DNA of 63,867 nt, counting the filler, from Collodictyon triciliatum (Eukaryota), in NCBI GenBank assembly GCA_043381765.1. It is 9 parts of 9 records of this genome, joined end to end, with 100 filler letters (N's around TTAATTAATTAA, not from the genome) between each part and the next. Parts side by side here need not be neighbours in the genome. Positions count along the whole stretch, not along the records: positions 8,298 to 16,492 come from JBHJMP010003537.1; 8 more parts are not named here. One strand, given 5' to 3'. The number at the start of each line of letters is the position of its first letter. Within the stretch, counting starts at the first letter, position 1. The notes under the pieces are model-generated. The model made no database searches and was not told where the DNA came from. It saw only the letters and a program-made list of their open reading frames with translations. A program made the position numbers and the translations under genes. Shown here in pieces: positions 5,541 through 61,488 of the stretch.

Positions 5541-5550
<10 letters not shown>

Positions 5551-5577
<27 letters not shown>

Positions 5578-5810
5578 TGTATGTATGTATGTATGTATGT
5601 ATGTATGTATGTATGTATGTATGTATGTATGTATGTATGTNNNNNNNNNNNNNNNNNNNNNNNNNNNNNNNNNNNNNNNNNNNNNNNNNNNTGTATGTAT
5701 GTATGTATGTATGTATGTATGTATGTATGTATGTATGTATGTATGTATGTATGTATGTATGTATGTATGTATGTATGTATGTATGTATGTATGTATGTAT
5801 GTATGTATGT
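5551..5810. repeat. (GTAT)n microsatellite with internal gap
   Basis: Direct reading. It explains the spurious MYVC/HTYI ORFs. Confidence 0.95.
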
Positions 5811-5926
5811 ACGATGTATGTATGCATCGCACTCAGCAAACCTAAAAGCCTATACCATGCATCTTTTTATTTTCCATATGATATTTTTCGCAACCGTGGA
5901 TGTGCAATTGTTAATGAACAAATAAT

Positions 5927-8197: not shown

Positions 8198-8297
8198 NNN
8201 NNNNNNNNNNNNNNNNNNNNNNNNNNNNNNNNNNNNNNNNNTTAATTAATTAANNNNNNNNNNNNNNNNNNNNNNNNNNNNNNNNNNNNNNNNNNNN
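8198..8297. other. Artificial contig spacer N44-TTAATTAATTAA-N44 (the 12-mer recurs starting at 16537, 24832, 33124, 41415, 49704, 57991, 61268)
   Basis: An identical six-frame-stop 12-mer flanked by 44 N on each side occurs eight times. The pieces between are about 8.19 kb and decrease in length. Confidence 0.97.
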
Positions 8298-8977: not shown

Positions 8978-11900
8978 TCATTCTAATATATGGTCATACA
9001 GCTCAAGTCCACGAATCAGGTCATAGTCTGGATTAGTCGACTCATTCCATAATGGCAGCCTCGTGATTCCACGCGGAGCTCTTTGGATTGTTGAGAATCC
9101 TGCTTTATCTCGGATGCGCAGGCAACTGAGTCCGGTTAATGCAGTAATCTCTGTAGGAAGCTCCCTTATCTAAGGATTTGAAAGGAAAAAAACATCAATT
9201 AATACAATTTTATAAGTTATAAATGCAAATGGCACCAGACTACCAGACCATATTCTCTCGTATATCCAAATGTAAAAGTCCGGTTAAAGATGATATTTCA
9301 GGAGAAAGGAGTGATAACTATGTATGCAATAAAATAATTTATTTCCGCATCGATGTCTGCGTCATTAAAATTTGTAAGTGCAATAATTGCTAAGGTAATG
9401 AATTATTTGGGAAACCATAGAAGGCTCCTTAACTACCACAAACTTTTATTATAAGGGAACATGTATGATAATGATGTTCCAAAAATGAATTCACCTGATC
9501 CAAATGTAGATGTAGTTTCTTCAACCTAGTCAACTGGCTCACTGAATTCGGGATTCTGGATAACCTCATTTCACCGATCCACAATGAGGTTGCGTGCTGA
9601 ATTCCGTGATTGCAAGGTGCGTATCGGATATTATTTTCTTCAATACCGTCTAATGTTTGTAATGCGTCAAATTCCCATAATGCACTACATACTTGCACTT
9701 CGTTGGATGTCAAGTGCTCTTGTATTAGTTGGCAGGCATATGAAATTTCATTCTTTGAAAGTGAGTAATATTCATAAACTTCAGACTGGTCAAGCTTTGA
9801 TATAATATTTCCGTCAAGTTTCAAGCCTTTGACTTTTGGAAGTAATGTATCTGGTATCTTGCCTCGATTTTTTTGCAAATATGTCACTAATTGAAAATGA
9901 CTCATTTCCTTCAAATATCTTTTCGAAGTTTTAGGACTGCTCTCATCAATATCCTTTTTTGATAGCTCTACAAATGTAGAAATTTCGGTAGGTGCTATAT
10001 GATACATCGCAATCAAGGTTTCATCATTCATTCTACTTTTTATATCATCAAATTTAATCCAATCGTGCTGATTAGAAATCTTTTCACTTAATTTTGTAAA
10101 ATTATGGTCACCAAGCCATTCTACAAACTCTCCGAGATGCATGTCAATCAAAGGAGAGTACTTTATTGGTAGTAATTCATTCATTTTTCCAAGAGAGAGG
10201 TAAATTCCAGACATCAAAAGCTCCTCAAGATATTGTAGGACCTGCAACAAACTTGGCCGAAGTTTATAATTTTGCTTCCAGCAAGTTCTGATTAAATGCT
10301 TTAGTTCTTTAGTGACTATGCGAGGTACGAAAGGCCGTAGACCCCTAATAACAAAACTCTGTGTTTGCGTTTCATTTTGAAATGGTTCGATGCCAGAGAA
10401 CATATACCAAAGCAGCATTCCCAAGGCATACACATTACTCGGTTCTCCTCGATGCCCCAAATTAATTTCGTCATCTCCATACATGGTCAATTCATCACAA
10501 TAATGAGGTTTACAAGCAACTTCATTTACCTCTGGTGCTTGCCAATTATTTGTGCCACCTTGCTTCCATTCACCATACCTTGTAGGTAAATTCGAGCTAA
10601 CTTTCTCTACTGCACGCAGGCTCACAATACCAAAATCTACAATTTTTACAATGTCATCGATAACCATGACATTGTCTGCTTTCAAATCTTCATGATAAAG
10701 ATTCCTTGAATGCATGAAAAAAAGCCCCGAGCAAAGTTGTTTTGTGTATGAGATTATCTGCATCAAATTTGGTTTGATGGCTCTTTTCTCTATCATAGTC
10801 TTCATCGATATTCCGGCATTCTCCATGATCATATAAAAATCGTCCTCTTTGCGATATACACCTAGTAATTTGACTATATTTACACACTCGCGGCACTCAT
10901 ATAAATATTTGCTCTCAAGAACAAGAGACCGAATTGTATCAGTTATAGTCTGCTCCATAGTCTTTTGAATGGTTTGTATTTTAACGACGGCATTCATTTT
11001 TTTATGGGTTTGTGTTAAATATACTCGACCATATGCCCCTTTTGCGAGATACTCTACAAGCTCTATCTTTTCATTAGTCCATAAATCGGCATATTGGCCC
11101 AAATTTTGATCAATAGAAGCTAACTCAAGAACATCTTCTGTATTTTGAGGTTTTTTGTTCTTTTTCACTCTCATTACTGAATGAAATCTCTGTGACATAC
11201 CTAAGAGTATATTTAAATATTATTACTTTGTGTGTGTTGTAAAATCTTGATAGTAAGAGGGGAAATATGATTTTATAGTAACTCTGTAAAAAAAATAAAA
11301 AAAAAGAAGAAAAGGACCTTGTTCCAGGTAGATACGTCCTTGTTTAACGGCACTAATCTTAAGCAAGTGGTCTTTTGTACACATTTTCAATTCTGAGTCT
11401 TCCATTTTTACCGAAGCTTTAATGTGGCCCTCCAAATCACTTTGTTGGCAAACGGGGCATTCAAAATGAATTTCTTGAACAAAATTTTGCCGAACGGACG
11501 AGATTTGCTCAAGTAAGGAGGAGAGGACGTCAAACATTCGAATAATTCCTGCGCCTTCATCAAAACCGTTATCGTATCTTCGAATTTTAATGGAAATTGT
11601 AGTTTGGTTAATTTTATAGAAAATTATGAATTCATTTCCGGGATAAAGGTGAATTTGGTTCCTTTCCAGTTCATATTTTGCATTTATGTGTATAAAGGCT
11701 ACATCCCTGAAAAATTGGTCGTCATATTGTACTCCAACCGGTGCTCCTTTTGTTAAACGAAGCGCCTGTATTATTAGTTTACTTTTATCGGAAAGTTGTA
11801 TTTCACCCCCAGCAATCATCTCCGCTGATATTTCTGCGATGCAATTAGACTCTGATTTTTCATTCCACAACGCCTTCAAATTGGCACAGTCCTCCATTAA

Positions 11901-13335
11901 GGAGGGAAATGCGATGCATTCTCTGTTGAATTGAATACCAAGGCCGAAGTGATCAAATATGTGGAATACTGTGCTCAAGACATCTTGATCCAATTGTATA
12001 CTTAATTCCTGTATAATATGGTCTCTTAGTTTGCTCAACAAAATGATCCCGTTTGTACCCTTACCAATTCCCCTGAAACTAAAGACGCAGCGAAATATAT
12101 TTATGAGAAAAAGTGGATCTAAGAATATTATATTCTTTGCACCCTCAAATGTTGAGTACCAAACAATCGAACCAAGATCATGGAGGAATTGTAGAGCACT
12201 TTCACACTCATTTTTGTCCATCTCCAAATGTTTATGAGCAAACATAAATGTTTCTTCAATTTTTTCATACTTGAATACATGCCCCTTAGAATCTAGGTAC
12301 TCCTTCAATCTAATATACACTTTTGGAACATCTCTATTCATATGGTCGAGCTTTATCATCCCTTCGTAAATCACTTTTTTTAGGGCAGACATCTTTGCTC
12401 CACTTTTGTTACTTACTTTTAACTCAGTGCTTATAAAATTGTGGCGAGATTTTTCATCACTTTTTTGATCATTTGCCTTACGAATCTTCTCTATCTCTTG
12501 ATACATCTCTTGGCTACTTAATGGATTTTCACAATCTTCATGAGTCCCAGCAATGATAATCTTTGAGCCAGGTGCAAAGTCATCAAGCATTTTAATCCAG
12601 CGGCCAAGGTTATTCTTTTCTTTATTTTGGTCAAGCCTATAAAGGATTAATACCAAAGCACCCGAGGATAAAAAGAACGGATGTGTTACTTGGAATTCAT
12701 CTTGTCCTCCAAAATCCCATATTTGCATGGATATCTTGGTTTTGAAAAATCCACCCATCATGGATTCGTCAATATCAACATGAGCAATACCATCTGTTTG
12801 CTTCCTCTCTCGGTCGGTTGTATCGTAAAAGAACCAATAATTCTGTTTAATAGATTTAGTAAGAGTTGTTTTTCCAGCTTCCCCTTCTCCAAGTAATAGA
12901 AGTCTCCCCTGAGTCCACTTCACAAGGCCACTCATAGAATTAACCAAAAAATCAAATATGGCCCCGGAACCGTTTGTTATAACATTTTCTGGTATATTCT
13001 TGACAGGATTTCCTAGAATAGTGAGTCCACCTCGCAAGCCTTTAATTTTTGCAAGAAATGGTGGTATGTGGACAATCTATACAATTAAATTGATTTAATT
13101 GACTATTTGGTTTGGTCATCAGGATTTTACAAAAAACATATTTTATTCGTCAACGTCTGTCTTTGAATCAAATAAAGGGAAAAATTCGTGAATATTTGAA
13201 TTTAAAACAAACGTTGTTGTTTGATATATCAAGCTTTTGCAAATTTGCTAGATTTACGATGGACTCGGGAATATGCGAAATCTAGATGCGCATAAATTAA
13301 ACAAAATAATGTATTGTCGTCGTTGTTGTTGTTGC

Positions 13336-13433
<98 letters not shown>

Positions 13434-15025
13434 TTACGACCTTATTCACATTAAATAGTATAGAAACAAGAAATTGATGATTGGTATGATTGGTTGAGAA
13501 TTCTTGTTTATATTCATCAAATTAATTGTCAAGAAACGTATCAATTTAGTTCCATGAAAGAAAAAAGGATGTTTTTTCATTCTAAAATATCTTTCTTTTT
13601 TTTACAAACCTTATTCTGACTGATGTTGAGGTATGTGATCTTTGTTAGCATTGACATATTTGCCGGAAGAACAGATATTTTCATGCTGTAAAAATTAAGC
13701 GATTGAAAATTTATTTGCCTCAAGCTTGGAATCCATTCAGCTGTCATCATCTCAAAATCCTGTTTTCGAGTAGATGTAAAAAAAAATGCGATGGGTAAAT
13801 GAAACTAGAATGGCTTTGGAATAAATGGAAGCTAACCGGAACTTCGTATAGTTGCAGCGCGCGTATGTATTTGTAGTCTCCACTTGAATTTTTCCAGCAT
13901 GGAAGGTTTGAAATACCACGTGGTGCCCTTTTAATGCTGACCTTTTCTCCATTTTCAATGTATAGCTCCTTTAGATTAGTGAGCGCTGTGATTTGTGGTG
14001 GAAGCTCCTCGATCTCAACAAATAGAAAATCAATGTTTGATATTGCATATCATTGTAAATATTAACAAATGCTTGTGTTCAATATACTCATCATCTCATT
14101 TATTCAGATAATCTTACTTTACATCATAATATCAAAGAGTATTAAATAATCCAACAAATACAGTTAAATCACTCAAAATTATTGTATGTGTGATTGTAAA
14201 AAAAAATTGTTTTCACAATGAAATAATTCTTATATGAATTTTCTTTCTTCATTTCTATAAATCATAAGTACACTGCGGAGGCTTAATACTATACCTTGTT
14301 CTGACTGACATCCAAAAAGCTCAGCTTTTCTAGACGGGAAATATTCACCGGCAATGAGGATAAGCTTTTTCCGGTGAAATCAAGGGACTCAAGTTGGATG
14401 TATGCTTCGTTTGGTATCCATCCCGGTTTCATTATTTCATCCTCCTATGTGGAGTTTTTCATTTTATTTTGATTTTTTTGATTTTTTTGATTTTTTTGAT
14501 TTTTTTGATTTTTTTGATTTTTTTGATTTTTTTTTGATTTTTTTTGATTTTTTTGATTTTTTTATTTCAGTCAACATACTGGTTGGTACAGCTGCAGCCT
14601 TCTGATATGCATGTTATCATCATATTCCGTGTTAGTCCAGCATGGAAGACATGTGATACCTTGTGGTGCCCTTTTAATGCTGGTATTACCACCATTTTCG
14701 ATATAGAGCTTCTTTAGGCTCTCTAGGGCTGTGATTTGTGGCGGTAGCTCTTCGATCTGCGCCATCTATTATTAGGATCTATAATTTATCTTGGTTATGA
14801 AATAGTACATACCGGATTTGTATAGATGTATAGTTCGATGAGGCCCGTCAATCTCGATATTTCTGGTGGGACGGCTATCAGATGGTTGCTGCTAATACTG
14901 AGGTACCTGAGACGATTCAAGCGTGATATTTCCGATGGCAACGATGTTAGTTGGTTGTAAGAAAGGCCAAGATATACAAGACTGTTTAAGCTTAATATTT
15001 CTAGCGATAGTATTGATAGTTTGTT
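8978..15025 (-). CDS. Roco protein: LRR - Roc GTPase - COR - protein kinase - two SAM-like domains - C-terminal LRR (multi-exon, 5' end lost in gap)
   Basis: 23-aa LRRs (NQLTSLPSEISRLNRLRYLSISSN). Roc motifs: LLGEGEAGKTTL, QTDGI, IWDFGGQDEFQVTHPFFLS, GTHED, KVSNKSG. COR motif: ALQFLHDLGSIVWY...IFLDPLFLI. Kinase motifs: LAKGAYGRVY, AVVK, HEDLKADN, DFG, WQAPE. Terminal LRR exons end ...LYDHILE* (stop 8978-8980). Confidence 0.92.
13319..13431. repeat. (GTT)n microsatellite in Roco intron
   Basis: Direct reading. It explains the poly-Cys ORF. Confidence 0.95.
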
Positions 15026-15754
15026 NNNNNNNNNNNNNNNNNNNNNNNNNNNNNNNNNNNNNNNNNNNNNNNNNNNNNNNNNNNNNNNNNNNNNNNNNNN
15101 NNNNNNNNNNNNNNNNNNNNNNNNNNNNNNNNNNNNNNNNNNNNNNNNNNNNNNNNNNNNNNNNNNNNNNNNNNNNNNNNNNNNNNNNNNNNNNNNNNNN
15201 NNNNNNNNNNNNNNNNNNNNNNNNNNNNNNNNNNNNNNNNNNNNNNNNNNNNNNNNNNNNNNNNNNNNNNNNNNNNNNNNNNNNNNNNNNNNNNNNNNNN
15301 NNNNNNNNNNNNNNNNNNNNNNNNNNNNNNNNNNNNNNNNNNNNNNNNNNNNNNNNNNNNNNNNNNNNNNNNNNNNNNNNNNNNNNNNNNNNNNNNNNNN
15401 NNNNNNNNNNNNNNNNNNNNNNNNNNNNNNNNNNNNNNNNNNNNNNNNNNNNNNNNNNNNNNNNNNNNNNNNNNNNNNNNNNNNNNNNNNNNNNNNNNNN
15501 NNNNNNNNNNNNNNNNNNNNNNNNNNNNNNNNNNNNNNNNNNNNNNNNNNNNNNNNNNNNNNNNNNNNNNNNNNNNNNNNNNNNNNNNNNNNNNNNNNNN
15601 NNNNNNNNNNNNNNNNNNNNNNNNNNNNNNNNNNNNNNNNNNNNNNNNNNNNNNNNNNNNNNNGTGTGGTCCCATTCAAAAGTGGAAAATATATTAAATT
15701 TCGACCATTTGCATCCCCGATGCCCAATCTGGTAGTGTGGGTCGTTAATTCTAT

Positions 15755-15930
15755 CGTCACCGCACTCAGTATGCGCTTGATGAGATTCATAACCTATTCA
15801 CTTTATGTGATTCAGCTAAAAGGAGCATACAGTATTTCGAATAGAAAACGCGGTGCGCCAGAATCCAGGGTCTCAACACTTTTTTCATAAAGGTTGTGCG
15901 GTGGCGAAGACTGCCAGGTGAGACCCAACA
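15755..15930 (-). ncRNA. Candidate Fanzor omega-RNA scaffold overlapping the nuclease 3' end
   Basis: Perfect 8-bp inverted repeat GGGTCTCA (15868-15875)/TGAGACCC (15919-15926). Inner TGGC/GCCA hairpin (15902-15916). A second 8-bp inverted repeat CACCGCAC (15758-15765)/GTGCGGTG (15896-15903) crosses the first. The position matches where TnpB/Fanzor omega-RNAs are encoded. Confidence 0.45.
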
Positions 15931-16492
15931 GCCTATTTTTTTTTAGAGCGAGGTGTATGCATATTTTGAGGATTAAAGGAACTTTCTTGAGTATATTATT
16001 AGCGCTGTTAAAGTCCCTTGTCAAGAATACACTTTGTTTGCTTTCTGACCAATTGCATTCTTTGCATATGAGACATATATACACCTTTGAATTTCTTTCA
16101 GTGTCATATATTCCAGTTCTTTTTTCGCAATTACAGCACATCTTGAAGGTTCTAAATTCATTTACATTAACTGGTTCAAAACTTTTGGATAATATTTTTC
16201 GTAATCCTCTTCCAATTATTGGCGTAAAATGTTTCATCTGACATTTCCTGCTCCAGTCTCCATACGACAGTACAACATCCTTGCCAAATGTCTTTTCGAT
16301 TCGGTCCATAAACAATCCTTCACTTCTTTTTGTATTGACATACTTTCTCCATACCATCTTTCGAAAAGTTACTTGTTCTTAAAATCTGAAAAGTTCTATC
16401 TGGAATCTTGATTTCATAGATACATATTTCCGAAATTATTCATAATCGACCGTGCATGAATTATGTTTACTCAGTTCTGTCTCTAAATCGAT
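15812..16492 (-). pseudogene. Fanzor (Fanzor1-like, TnpB-derived RuvC nuclease) C-terminal half; 5'-truncated by contig end, with in-frame stops
   Basis: One intronless frame reads IDLETELSKHNSCTVDYE*FRKYVSMK...LFRF*EQVTFRKMVWRKYVNTKRSE...FGKDVVLSYGDWS...MKHFTPIIGRGLRKIL...VNEFRTFKMCCNC...CLICKEC...TRDFNSANNIL. This contains the RuvC-II Glu, a CxxC...CxxC zinc finger and RuvC-III RDxNxAxNI. TAA stops are at 16436-16438 and 16379-16381. Confidence 0.88.
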
Positions 16493-32934: not shown

Positions 32935-34389
32935 ATGCGGCACCTATAGAGCATTCTCTTCAACTTCTGCCGAACTCTTTTAAGAGAAGAAAGGAAAGGA
33001 AAGGAAAGGAAAGGAAAGGAAAGGAAAGGAAAGGAAAGGAAAGGAAAGGAAAGGAAAGGAAAGAAAAGAAAAGAAAAGANNNNNNNNNNNNNNNNNNNNN
33101 NNNNNNNNNNNNNNNNNNNNNNNTTAATTAATTAANNNNNNNNNNNNNNNNNNNNNNNNNNNNNNNNNNNNNNNNNNNNAAAAAAACAAAAAAAAAAAAA
33201 AAAAAAACAAAAAAAACAAAAAAAACAAAAAAAAAAACAAAAAAACAACAAAAAAAACAACAAAAAAAACTGTCACAAGCTTTTCTATTTAACACTTCAA
33301 CACACCTGAAAAAGCTGATATTCCACATAGAAGTCTGAGGCGCCGCCTTTCAAAGATGCACTGCTGTCAATAACGCGTCTCTTCCGTGCGTGGCAGTCTC
33401 CGCGAGAATATCTTTGTGAGTCTCTGTTCAACGCTGCTCTGTTTTGCGCTGCGCAGGCGATCACGAAAGCACGCAAGTGCAGAAGGAAAGAGAATAATAA
33501 AAAAAGAAGCTTTGTACTCCACATTTAGCCTCGCCAATGGTGCCCATATTTTCACAGTGTAGTAGACAATTTGTCACGCCTACTCGCGCACAACACTGGT
33601 TCGAGCCGATTCTGATACACAGCCACAAACATAGCCGAAAACATAGGCAAAGCGGAACAGAAAAGTGAGTTCAATCGTGGGGTGCGGTGCTCCGGTAGGC
33701 CAGTCCTATTCCCGCTGCAAAAAAAAAAAGACCAATTTTTTTTATATAATATGTGCTACATACATTTTTTGACTTTTGCGCTGTGAACCAGTACTACCCG
33801 CGACTTGCAATTGCGTGTTTCTGTTTGGTTAATGGTGTGGTGTGCAATCACTCTACCTAAAAAGGTGGTAATACAAGTCTATGACAGGATACCTGTATTT
33901 CCCTTCGTTTGTGTACCGAAATAATTTGTTTGCCAATCCGAAACTGGGTTGCTTAACCACATAAAATTTTGTTTGGTGATTACGCCTGGATATACCTATA
34001 TCTTGCTTTGACATGACATACAACTTCTGATGCACCAGCTTTAGTAAAGGGAAAGCAAACATTGTGATATGTTAGCCAATAGATACGTGTTTGCAGGCAA
34101 TATAAAACGCATTAAACTTTTGCCGATTCGCTCCCGTTCTTCTAAAAAAAAATCAATACATGGAATGAATAAACGAGCTATTTAAGTAATTGGTTCTTTT
34201 AAAAAAAATGAAATGGAATGTGTACAAAACCAACAATTCAGCGCATAACATTTCGAAAAATGATCATCGACACGATAACAACACAATTTCTTTAATTTAA
34301 CTCATGCAATAGACATGAAGCGAAATTATCTGGAATAATTTTAATTTAAGTTTTTTTTTTTTTTATTGATTCTTTTGCAGCCTTTTTGA

Positions 34390-41370: not shown

Positions 41371-41601
41371 NNNNNNNNNNNNNNNNNNNNNNNNNNNNNN
41401 NNNNNNNNNNNNNNTTAATTAATTAANNNNNNNNNNNNNNNNNNNNNNNNNNNNNNNNNNNNNNNNNNNNAAAGAAAAGAAAAGAAAAGAAAAGAAAAGA
41501 AAAGAAAAGAAAAGAAAAGAAAAGAAAAGAAAAGAAAAGAAAAGAAAAGAAAAGAAAAGAAAAGAAAAGAAAAGAAAGGTAAAGAAAAAGACACCAGGCA
41601 C

Positions 41602-49510: not shown

Positions 49511-49924
49511 TGAGAGAGGGAAAAGAGTGGGATTAGAAAGGGGAGAAAGAAGAGAAGAGAAGAGAAGAGAAGAGAAGAGAAGAGAAGAGAAAGAGAAGAG
49601 AAGAGAAGAGAAAGAGAAGAGAAAGAGAAGAGAAAGAGAAGAGAAAGAGAAGAGAAAGANNNNNNNNNNNNNNNNNNNNNNNNNNNNNNNNNNNNNNNNN
49701 NNNTTAATTAATTAANNNNNNNNNNNNNNNNNNNNNNNNNNNNNNNNNNNNNNNNNNNNATCTCTTTCTATCTCTTTCTATCTCTTTCTATCTCTTTCTA
49801 TCTCTTTCTATCTCTTTCTATCTCTTTCTATCTCTTTCTATCTCTTTCTATCTCTTTCCTTCTTTCCATCTCTTGCTACTTTTCTTTATTTTCGATCGCT
49901 AGACCTGAACGTTGACTATTCTAG

Positions 49925-57946: not shown

Positions 57947-58353
57947 NNNNNNNNNNNNNNNNNNNNNNNNNNNNNNNNNNNNNNNNNNNNTTAATTAATT
58001 AANNNNNNNNNNNNNNNNNNNNNNNNNNNNNNNNNNNNNNNNNNNNTTGTTTTTTTGTTTTTTGTTTTTTGTTTTTTTGTTTTTTGTTTTTTTGTTTTTT
58101 GTTTAGTTTCGGTTGGAAAGTATTGCCATATATAAAGTACCGTATATAATCTAGAATTTTATTTGTGCGTTTTGTAACAAAGAAATGCGTTATCTCACTG
58201 TTTGCGTGTGATTACACTTCGGAGAACAAATTGGCTTTGGAACTGGCGCAGTAAGTAATGACGTGAGAAGTCAGTCCTGCCCTTTCCTGACGGCGCTAAT
58301 AAAACATAAGTAAGAACCCTTAAAACACAGGAAGAATCGGAACTAACGAAACG

Positions 58354-60222: not shown

Positions 60223-61488
60223 ACTGGTTATAACAGTTATTCTACTCCCTCTATCACATTGTAAATAGTGCCCGTAATTTTTATTTCTGTGCTTTCAGAT
60301 TTCGGGATTATCATTTGCGATGCATGCAAGCAAAACAATTATAAAGGAAGGTGTAAATAACCAGTAAAAAACACAAAAGTCAATAGATACAATCCTTTGC
60401 GGTCTGTGTATCGTGGTATTGTTAATTATTTATTTATTTTATTTTATTTAATCTCCTATTGCCCATTTTTACGGCTTTCAGGAATTAGTCACAGGAAGCA
60501 AATGGAAAGTAGAACTTTATCACCATTGTTTTCCGCAAGTGGTATGTATACGCGGGGACTTGGGAACAGCAAATCTGTCTTCATCGGCGATATTCAGTGA
60601 ATGTGCAAATTTGTGGAATTATTTACATTTATAGGCAATGGACAGATACTAGTTTGCGACAGTAGGCAATATCCATATCAACACTGATTATGTTTTCCTA
60701 AATCAGCCTTGGATCCTAAGTGCGTTTCGTTTGCCTTTGATTTGCTCCGTCTTTTTTCCTCTCGCAAAGGCCAAACACGTCACGTCAAAACCGTACGCCC
60801 GAAGGCGAATCCATCCAAATATCCACATGGCTTCTCTGCAAGCAACACCCTTCTTTTCTTTTCTTTTTTCTTTTTTTTTTCTTGATCGTTCAAAATGATT
60901 CATTTCAACGGCCTTGTTGGTTTTGTCTCGTTTAAAGTCGTGCCCTCGGTTGTTGTCGATTCCTTCATGACTTTTGCTCTCAGGCTAAACTTTTTTTTTG
61001 TTTTATGTTTTTTGTTTTTTGTTTTATGTTTTATGTTTTTTGTTTTTTGTTTTTTGTTTTATGTTTTTTGTTTTATGTTTTTTGTTTTATGTTTTTTGTT
61101 TTATGTTTTATGTTTTATGTTTTATGTTTTATGTTTTATGTTTTTTGTTTTTTGTTTTTTGTTTTTTGTTTTATGTTTTTTGTTTTATGTTTTTTGTTTT
61201 ATGTTTTTTGTTTTATGTTTTATNNNNNNNNNNNNNNNNNNNNNNNNNNNNNNNNNNNNNNNNNNNNTTAATTAATTAANNNNNNNNNNNNNNNNNNNNN
61301 NNNNNNNNNNNNNNNNNNNNNNNTATATACTCTTTTTTTATAAAAAAAAAAAAAAAAATTGTAAAAAAATTAAAAAAAATACATTTTATTAAAAAAAAAA
61401 AAATAATTTTGTTGTTTTTTTTTTTTTTTTTTTACAATATATTGGATAAATGATATGGAATTCACTTATCCTTCTTGAATAATTGCAG

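Follow-up and report, generated by a model that had tools for sequence, protein, structure and literature searches.

The Fanzor1 omega-RNAs of Guillardia theta, Spizellomyces punctatus and Parasitella parasitica (PMC10432273, PMC11423790; PDB 9cer, 8gkh, 9cf0) are the closest described counterparts of the locus considered here, with nucleases of the same family. The locus is the 3' end of a minus-strand Fanzor1 gene fragment in a 63,867-nucleotide (nt) stretch of Collodictyon triciliatum DNA (GenBank assembly GCA_043381765.1), hereafter the window, where a sequence-only reading had placed a putative omega-RNA with a pseudoknot-like 3' part at positions 15700-15930. In the three described systems the RNA lies at or over the 3' end of the open reading frame (ORF) on the strand of the gene, folds into nested stem-loops, and takes its guide from beyond the right end of the element. 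Fanzor1 omega-RNAs are 75-150 nt long, with a stem-loop 1 (SL1) of seven pairs and a variable remainder, and that of GtFz1 shows tertiary contacts between SL2 and SL4 (Xu 2024, PMC11423790). The omega-RNA of SpuFz1, an 88-90-nt RNA located downstream of the gene with 14-15 variable nt past its conserved end, is described as being without the pseudoknot common to TnpB and Cas12 (Saito 2023, PMC10432273), and Fanzor1 seems to have lost the pseudoknot (PMC10432273; Yoon 2023, PMC10711439). In TnpB and Fanzor2, base pairing joins about five guide-flanking nt to the loop at the apex of a 5' stem-loop (Yoon 2023, PMC10711439). Because of these reports, the terminal pseudoknot that the sequence-only reading took as established for TnpB and Fanzor omega-RNAs holds for TnpB and Fanzor2 and fails as a premise for Fanzor1.

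Compared with these systems, the window offers enough space for an RNA of 75-150 nt, but it has no sequence similarity to the three Fanzor1 omega-RNAs, neither a 7-bp SL1 nor a scaffold-guide junction is identifiable in it, and its gene is a pseudogene fragment. The omega/reRNA pseudoknot of TnpB (ISDra2, ISXfa1) and Fanzor2 resembles the proposed fold in having a long-range pairing beside the guide; it differs in that the pairing proposed in the window has 8 bp, joins a stem-enclosed segment to a site about 130 nt downstream, and accompanies a Fanzor1 nuclease. Closer in design are the Fanzor1 scaffolds of giant-virus, lake and marine elements (labelled L001-L107), which have the same order of A-rich linker, hairpin and terminal stem before the end and have the short words GTTGG.TC and GCCAC(CG) in common with the window, whereas CAGTTGATTTTAC, GGCGTTTTAAAT and GGTGTAA are missing from the window and a profile search was negative. 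The same scaffold design has been described for the Fanzor1 reRNA of a Spodoptera frugiperda ascovirus (Yoon 2023, PMC10711439).

Here we report an analysis of this 3' end on both strands, in other copies of the family and in related elements. With moderate confidence, we regard the stretch as an ordinary decayed Fanzor1 3' end carrying a plausible omega-RNA relic, in which the pseudoknot is unsupported and the long-range pairing is perhaps an ordinary terminal stem. As it stands, the locus contributes no more than a decayed Fanzor1 copy belonging to a clade that has been little sampled, that of the relative P0001, in a freshwater eukaryote.

The Fanzor1 fragment and its decay

The interval 15885-16492 carries, on the minus strand, the C-terminal part of a Fanzor1 pseudogene (tblastn, BLASTP and frame analysis), including the RuvC-II glutamate, a zinc finger and RuvC-III, which are recognizable by the hallmarks NEFRT, CxxC...CxxC and RDFNSAN. 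Residues 444-635 of P0001 correspond to 16492-15917 with 63% identity by tblastn (62% by BLASTP), and a 181-amino-acid ORF at 16357-15812, together with the upstream frame to 16492, matches the C-terminus of proteins of 635-648 amino acids. When P0001 was compared with solved structures in the PDB, the matches were GtFz1 (E 2e-28), PpFz1 (3e-24) and SpuFz1 (4e-23); all significant matches were Fanzor1 chains, and no TnpB or Fanzor2 chain was found among the P0001 matches up to E 1. By homology, the minus-strand gene is therefore assigned as a C-terminal fragment of Fanzor1, a eukaryotic TnpB-like RNA-guided nuclease, and not to the TnpB or Fanzor2 type, which bears out the placement of a Fanzor 3' end on this strand by the sequence-only reading. 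The N-terminal two thirds of the gene were not found in the window by tblastn with P0001, and the gene stops at 16492 because a contig linker begins at 16493. Protein searches for the tails of further copies returned three short relatives, each in the ancestral frame; no additional C-terminal tails were found among the cluster members of the relatives, and a protein search with the plus-strand ORF translation of 15666-15887 was without matches.

The reading had also anticipated a broken gene, and the copy is indeed dead, its reading frame being interrupted by two TAA codons, a frameshift and a TAG. The TAA at 16379..16381 (minus strand; frame analysis and other copies) stands at a Tyr position of the relatives, the second in-frame TAA (16436-16438, minus strand) at a position where P0001 has Lys, and the A9 run at 15936-15944 contains a frameshift relative to the relatives and is followed by a TAG (15935-15933) at their Gln, the whole lesion spanning 15933..15944 on the minus strand. 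In the homologous frame, 15885-15944 (minus strand) translates as KKK*AVGSHLAVFATAQPL*, where the counterparts in the relatives P0005 and P0001 are KKQAVGFHSAACMVTHRNM and KKQAVGYSSTALTVTHKRMRM, respectively. Since this frame past the A9 run matches both tails, the ancestral ORF ended at the TGA at 15887-15885, where homologous reading ends, and the remainder of the 181-amino-acid mechanical ORF (15812..15884, minus strand) is a read-through tail in a shifted, non-homologous frame.

Other copies of the same family were sought in public sequencing runs. The run search gave sampled-word shares of 0.04-0.14 with five lake, fresh-water or drinking-water metagenomes, one run labelled 'metagenome' and one labelled 'organism A' (X4), which is taken as RNA by guess only; no RNA runs were listed in the run search of the stretch. 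Contigs of four runs (X1-X4) were placed on 15664-16492 at a likeness of at least 80%. The 107 X4 contigs on this interval fall at 99% or above (17), 95-99% (17), 90-95% (40) and below 90% (33), and the coding part of Fanzor1 is multi-copy. Decoding of TAA as a sense codon was considered and ruled out by these copies, together with the frameshift and the TAG: their plus-strand A at 16379 restores a minus-strand TAT (Tyr) at 16379-81 in one X1 contig, one X3 contig and 11 X4 contigs (208.1/208.1 depth). Most other copies have an extra base at 16094 (five X4 contigs and one X2 contig), and some have one base fewer at 16120 (four X4 contigs). The window copy may thus contain two offsetting frameshifts, because the two positions bracket the sole poorly aligned patch of the protein.

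Pairings and folds over the 3' end

All motifs named in the sequence-only reading lie where it had put them (sequence read-out and script). The perfect 8-mers GGGTCTCA/TGAGACCC (15868-75/15919-26) form an enclosing stem that, with the inner TGGC/GCCA hairpin (15902-05/15913-16, its pairs checked as valid), occupies 15868..15926 on the minus strand. A second pair of perfect 8-mers, CACCGCAC/GTGCGGTG (15758-65/15896-903), is present; on the minus strand, GUGCGGUG at 15758..15765 pairs with CACCGCAC at 15903-15896, either as the 3' arm of a nested terminal stem or by chance. GCGGTG is found at 15850-55, and the hairpin GCATC-CCC-GATGC at 15711..15723 (minus strand). A script recovered exactly two perfect 8-bp inverted pairs no more than 200 nt apart in 15664-15960, and these two cross. 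As a set, the pairings are at chance level. Shuffling 15664-15960 2000 times with dinucleotides preserved gave one or more such pairs in 727 cases, two or more in 285 and crossing pairs in 49, and among 380 N-free tiles of 297 nt from the window, at least two perfect 8-bp pairs occurred in 121 and a crossing in 37. An Rfam search returned four matches only, with E values of 0.31-8.3, far under the gathering scores.

None of the stretches folded was more stable than its shuffles (z about -1.6 to +0.1): for 15664-15960, z was -1.56 (minus strand) and -1.03 (plus strand), and six sub-stretches ranged from -1.51 to +0.12. It is only on the plus strand that the stem set of the sequence-only reading makes up the minimum-energy fold. 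The minus-strand minimum-energy folds never use its enclosing stem and contain instead a hairpin of 12 bp, four of them G-U, around a 3-nt loop (AGGCUGUUGGGU CUC ACCUGGCAGUCU; 15908..15934), which overlaps the last codons of the ancestral ORF; as these four pairs would be A-C on the plus strand, it is a minus-strand-only hairpin. The two structures are mutually exclusive and about equally stable on the minus strand, where the enclosing stem with the inner hairpin reaches -15.3 kcal/mol (-17.4 on the plus strand) and the 12-bp hairpin -14.7 kcal/mol. For 15664-15960, the minimum-energy fold of the minus strand includes the CACCGCAC/GUGCGGUG pairing; once the 12-bp hairpin has formed, this pairing is nested, and therefore no pseudoknot results.

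The 12-bp hairpin over the last ancestral codons is the best-founded single element of the stretch. Outside simple repeats, the two strands of the window (2 x 61 kb) have six places, this one included, where 12 or more consecutive pairs close a loop of 3-8 nt; the hairpin is therefore the less trivial feature, though one chosen after the fact. The codons of P0001 and P0005 fit the hairpin at all fixed positions except one (the closing pair, in P0001) and vary at its loop, a comparison that coding constraint confounds. Its 24-letter pattern had one match, in a Kocuria genome, which was taken as chance, and none in viral contigs.

Variant copies cover the stretch as three loose ends, seen in 30-letter glimpses in which the partner arm of every changed arm lies outside the view. 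An X1 copy, compared by eye with 15906-15935, differs at 15910, 15919-15921, 15927 and 15935. It thereby changes three of the eight letters of the arm TGAGACCC (15919-26), precisely those that form the loop and closing pair of the 12-bp hairpin, and turns two G-U pairs of that hairpin (15910 and 15927) into G-C; as transitions at G-U pairs always restore pairing, the latter changes are consistent with the hairpin but uninformative. An X2 contig has the same sequence as the window throughout 15782-15887, the 106 nt below the ancestral stop, and then shows eight differences in the 31 letters of 15888-15918. The sharp switch at 15887 possibly reflects recombination or gene conversion between Fanzor copies. 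Within the differing part, GTGCGGTG becomes GTGTAGTG, with two of eight letters changed (15899 and 15900).

One X4 contig matches 15664-15786 with 13 listed differences. Three of them, T>C at 15714, G>A at 15719 and T>C at 15721, convert three of the five pairs of the GCATC hairpin to G-U (minus strand) or A-C (plus strand), and another, at 15716, falls in the loop. Three transitions would all give G-U by chance in 1 of 8 cases, and the resulting hairpin would be weak. Three apparent signals in these contigs were discarded. A homology breakpoint at 15786/7 was rejected, since the 30 loose letters of the X4 contig give a gapless alignment with 15787-15816 in which 18 of 30 positions agree (17 of 22 within 15792-15813), so that, judged from this alignment, the part past 15786 is merely a more diverged patch. 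A conserved island at 15751-15786, where no differences are listed, was likewise rejected: listed rows rest on at least one contig at least 33 letters from its end, that contig is likewise free of listed differences in its first 32 letters, and the blank is probably a product of this listing rule. The X4 hole at 15804-15887 was set aside as a signal, since a hole proves nothing.

Related scaffolds and competing readings of the right end

Of 311 related metagenome loci the best 80 were collected, together with 27 loci from viruses, most of them giant viruses (L001-L107). Their proteins are 41-52% identical over the C-terminus and, among the loci listed, none exceeds 53% over its best aligned segment. 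ORF tails of the relatives share a peptide such as EKVGQSVDFT, and the underlying nucleotide block is conserved whether the stop precedes the block (L018 type) or lies inside it (L001 and L084 types). As these nucleotides stay conserved in elements whose stop is upstream of them, the peptide GQSVDFT has the look of a side effect of RNA overlap. The block consists, in order, of a variable covarying hairpin, an A-rich linker, AGTTGG.CAATCAGTTGATTTTAC, a hairpin of 4-5 bp (hairpin B), a terminal stem enclosing a small hairpin, and GGTGTAA; it is exemplified by L001:3432-3562, L018:664-789 and L084:3429-3557 from giant-virus and aquatic metagenome Fanzor1 elements. Hairpin B has four pairs in which, among 33 sequences, both partners differ and pairing is kept in 1, 11, 14 and 15 sequences. 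The terminal stem covaries as well, with the arms CTTGAAC/GTTCAAG, AAGGAA/TTCCTT, TTTGCATATTTA/TAAATGTGCAAA and TTTTCTCAT/ATGAGAAAA, or (G)CCACCGA and TCGGTG in the viral clade, and its 3' arm stands 0-2 nt ahead of GGTGTAA. All identifiable stems of the scaffold are nested. Past GGTGTAA(A/T) the sequence is wholly different even among elements with near-identical scaffolds (L018-L027), and the end lies 203 (L018), 213 (L001), 217 (L084) or 264 nt (L009) from the first base of the RD codon. In view of the literature, we infer that the block is the scaffold of an omega-RNA, which ends together with the transposon on the right and has the guide past that end; its clean covarying nested architecture and sharp right end provide a template for annotating Fanzor1 elements.

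The stretch is the 3' end and downstream DNA of a dead minus-strand Fanzor1 copy, within whose multi-copy gene the fragmentary assembly breaks. In the relatives, a nested-hairpin omega-RNA scaffold would be encoded by the final codons together with the DNA that directly follows, with its last stem immediately before the end (GGTG|TA), and the RNA would then run into flanking DNA, which would serve as the guide. The window stretch would be the decayed counterpart of such a scaffold; on its transcribed strand, the 12-bp hairpin competes with the enclosing stem, and the CACCGCAC/GUGCGGUG pairing, if real, would be a nested terminal stem. The relatives have a conserved structured module over the ORF 3' end with copy-specific sequence behind it; by analogy, a relic of an omega-RNA within the stretch or directly below it is plausible and may reasonably be expected, while the originally proposed pseudoknot topology is unsupported.

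Several observations weigh against this view of the stretch. Three nhmmer profiles (both relative clades and a joint one), run with filters off on both strands of 15664-16492, found nothing in 15664-15940 and matched only the coding part at chance level (E 0.23-3.8), so that the P0001-type clade of the window has a different 3' sequence, and the likeness to the relatives is a matter of design, not of alignment. No DNA relative is closer than 52-53% (metagenome, among the loci listed) or 52% (viral); a P0001 search of genome contigs gave no match. In the X2 copy, 15905 and 15913 of the inner TGGC/GCCA hairpin are changed on both sides and still pair (one pair, at 15914, is broken), and by eye the same hairpin aligns with the covarying hairpin B of the relatives; both points speak for part of the originally proposed fold and against the 12-bp hairpin. 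GtFz1, the best solved match, has SL2-SL4 contacts, and contacts of higher order are therefore conceivable in a long omega-RNA of Fanzor1.

The candidate right ends of the element are about 15756, close to the 15755 of the sequence-only reading and chosen by analogy, about 15830, and a point inside the gap of N letters that follows. Of the invariant blocks CAGTTGATTTTAC, GGCGTTTTAAAT (one clade) and GGTGTAA, the window has none. What can be seen by eye is a likeness of design, with an A-run, GTTGG.TC, and the hairpin TGGC-AGTCTTC-GCCA at the place of hairpin B. A possible, if rather doubtful, reading builds on this likeness and keeps the originally proposed end, which resembles the terminal-stem design of one relative clade: a hairpin, either the 12-bp one or TGGC/GCCA, would be followed by a CACCGCAC/GUGCGGUG stem closing about 130 nt, and the relic would end after GGUG near 15756 with the guide below. 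The terminal stem of the relatives has its 5' arm immediately behind hairpin B and its 3' arm finishing at the element end, and the viral-clade arms GCCACCGA and TCGGTG then TAAT find their counterparts in GCCACCGCAC, next after the window hairpin, and, far downstream, GTGCGGTG then ACGAT. An end near 15756 would be 263 nt from the RD codon at 16018, within the range of the four relatives measured, and the pairing is the one used in the minus-strand minimum-energy fold. These likenesses, on the other hand, are a few short words picked after the fact for which the viral-clade profile finds nothing; the closed interior would be three to four times longer than in most relatives; the X2 copy changes the 5' arm at two positions; and the X4 contig, at least 80% alike over 15664-15786, runs across the proposed end, which fits an ortholog or a longer element but not a paralog ending at 15756. 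By analogy with the viral clade, an end near 15756 is a lead only. A more compact scaffold ending near 15830 at ACTG|TA seems improbable. Its last stem would be GUUUUC-UAUUC-GAAAUAC, a local hairpin directly before ACUGUA (15828..15833, minus strand), and both 15758-65 and the 15711-23 hairpin would be host flank. The usual right end of Tc1/mariner elements has the form ACTG then TA, and GCGTTTT...TGTA resembles the GGCGTTTTAAAT...GGTGTAA block of the relatives, with 16 of 29 letters matching GGCGTTTT...GGTGTAA by eye. This candidate, which nhmmer did not report, is 188 nt from the RD codon, below all four relatives measured, and the X2 copy is identical to the window across it and becomes different only above 15887. 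A 12-nt exact match to the right-end consensus of the relatives, TTCAAAGGTGTA, occurs at 16080-16091 (minus strand) inside Fanzor coding sequence (nhmmer E about 1) and is probably due to chance.

It is also unlikely that 15700-15885 holds no omega-RNA relic at all, the element having been truncated or rearranged after the ancestral stop and replaced downstream by host DNA such as the upstream region of an LRR-Roc-COR gene. Homologous coding does end at 15885-87, known scaffolds show no similarity (Rfam and nhmmer), the folds are not unusual, and the next gene on the same strand is LRR-Roc-COR. Against truncation, the diverged X2 copy is identical over the 106 nt below the stop, which is its coverage limit, and the shared unit therefore extends past the stop; moreover, the scaffold of all relative clades reaches 203-264 nt past the RD codon, about 15755-15815 here. 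As to the functional omega-RNA originally proposed, with a pseudoknotted 3' part, a right end near 15755 and the next 15-20 nt as guide, we consider it very improbable. Its pairings all exist and are perfect, its stem and inner hairpin reach -15.3 kcal/mol on the minus strand, one inner-hairpin pair is kept in X2 despite changes on both sides, and GtFz1 has tertiary contacts between SL2 and SL4 (PMC11423790). The crossing, however, is of a kind that chance produces in 37 of 380 window tiles, the enclosing stem goes unused in the minus-strand minimum-energy fold and is excluded by a hairpin of equal energy, X1 alters three of the eight letters of one arm just at the loop of that rival hairpin, Fanzor1 omega-RNAs are reported to be without the pseudoknot (PMC10432273, PMC10711439), and the gene copy is dead. 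There is, finally, the barest likelihood that the P0001-type clade (648 amino acids) uses a long omega-RNA of about 180 nt whose guide-side 3' arm pairs into a stem-enclosed segment, a true Fanzor1 pseudoknot. Such a pseudoknot would run contrary to the reported loss and be akin to, or an elaboration of, the GtFz1 contacts; if true, it would mean that Fanzor1 did not uniformly lose the TnpB-type pseudoknot, and would provide compact genome editors from eukaryotes with a scaffold of new design.

Surroundings of the Fanzor1 fragment

The window is a chain of nine contigs of 8197, 8195, 8195, 8192, 8191, 8189, 8187, 3177 and 2544 bases, ordered by falling size and joined by N44-TTAATTAATTAA-N44 linkers at 8198-8297, 16493-16592, 24788-24887, 33080-33179, 41371-41470, 49660-49759, 57947-58046 and 61224-61323; some contigs contain longer N runs, and no feature is to be read across the joints. 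The Fanzor1 3' end is located in the second contig (8298-16492), between the contig end at 16492, where the linker at 16493..16592 joins two contigs, and a run of 638 N at 15026..15663, immediately downstream of the candidate omega-RNA stretch, that masks the following DNA.

Downstream of the Fanzor fragment and on the same strand lies a gene of several exons for an LRR-Roc-COR protein (Roco-type GTPase) at 11223-13037 and 14571-15022 (minus strand), with Pfam matches to Roc (5e-19), COR-A (2e-9) and LRR_4 (5e-10). Long microsatellites are frequent in the window contigs (5542-5827, 13297-13458, 16593-16688 and 17270-17380); they comprise (TGTA)n, a long trinucleotide run, (CAAA)n and (GAAAAA)n, and inflate counts of inverted repeats.

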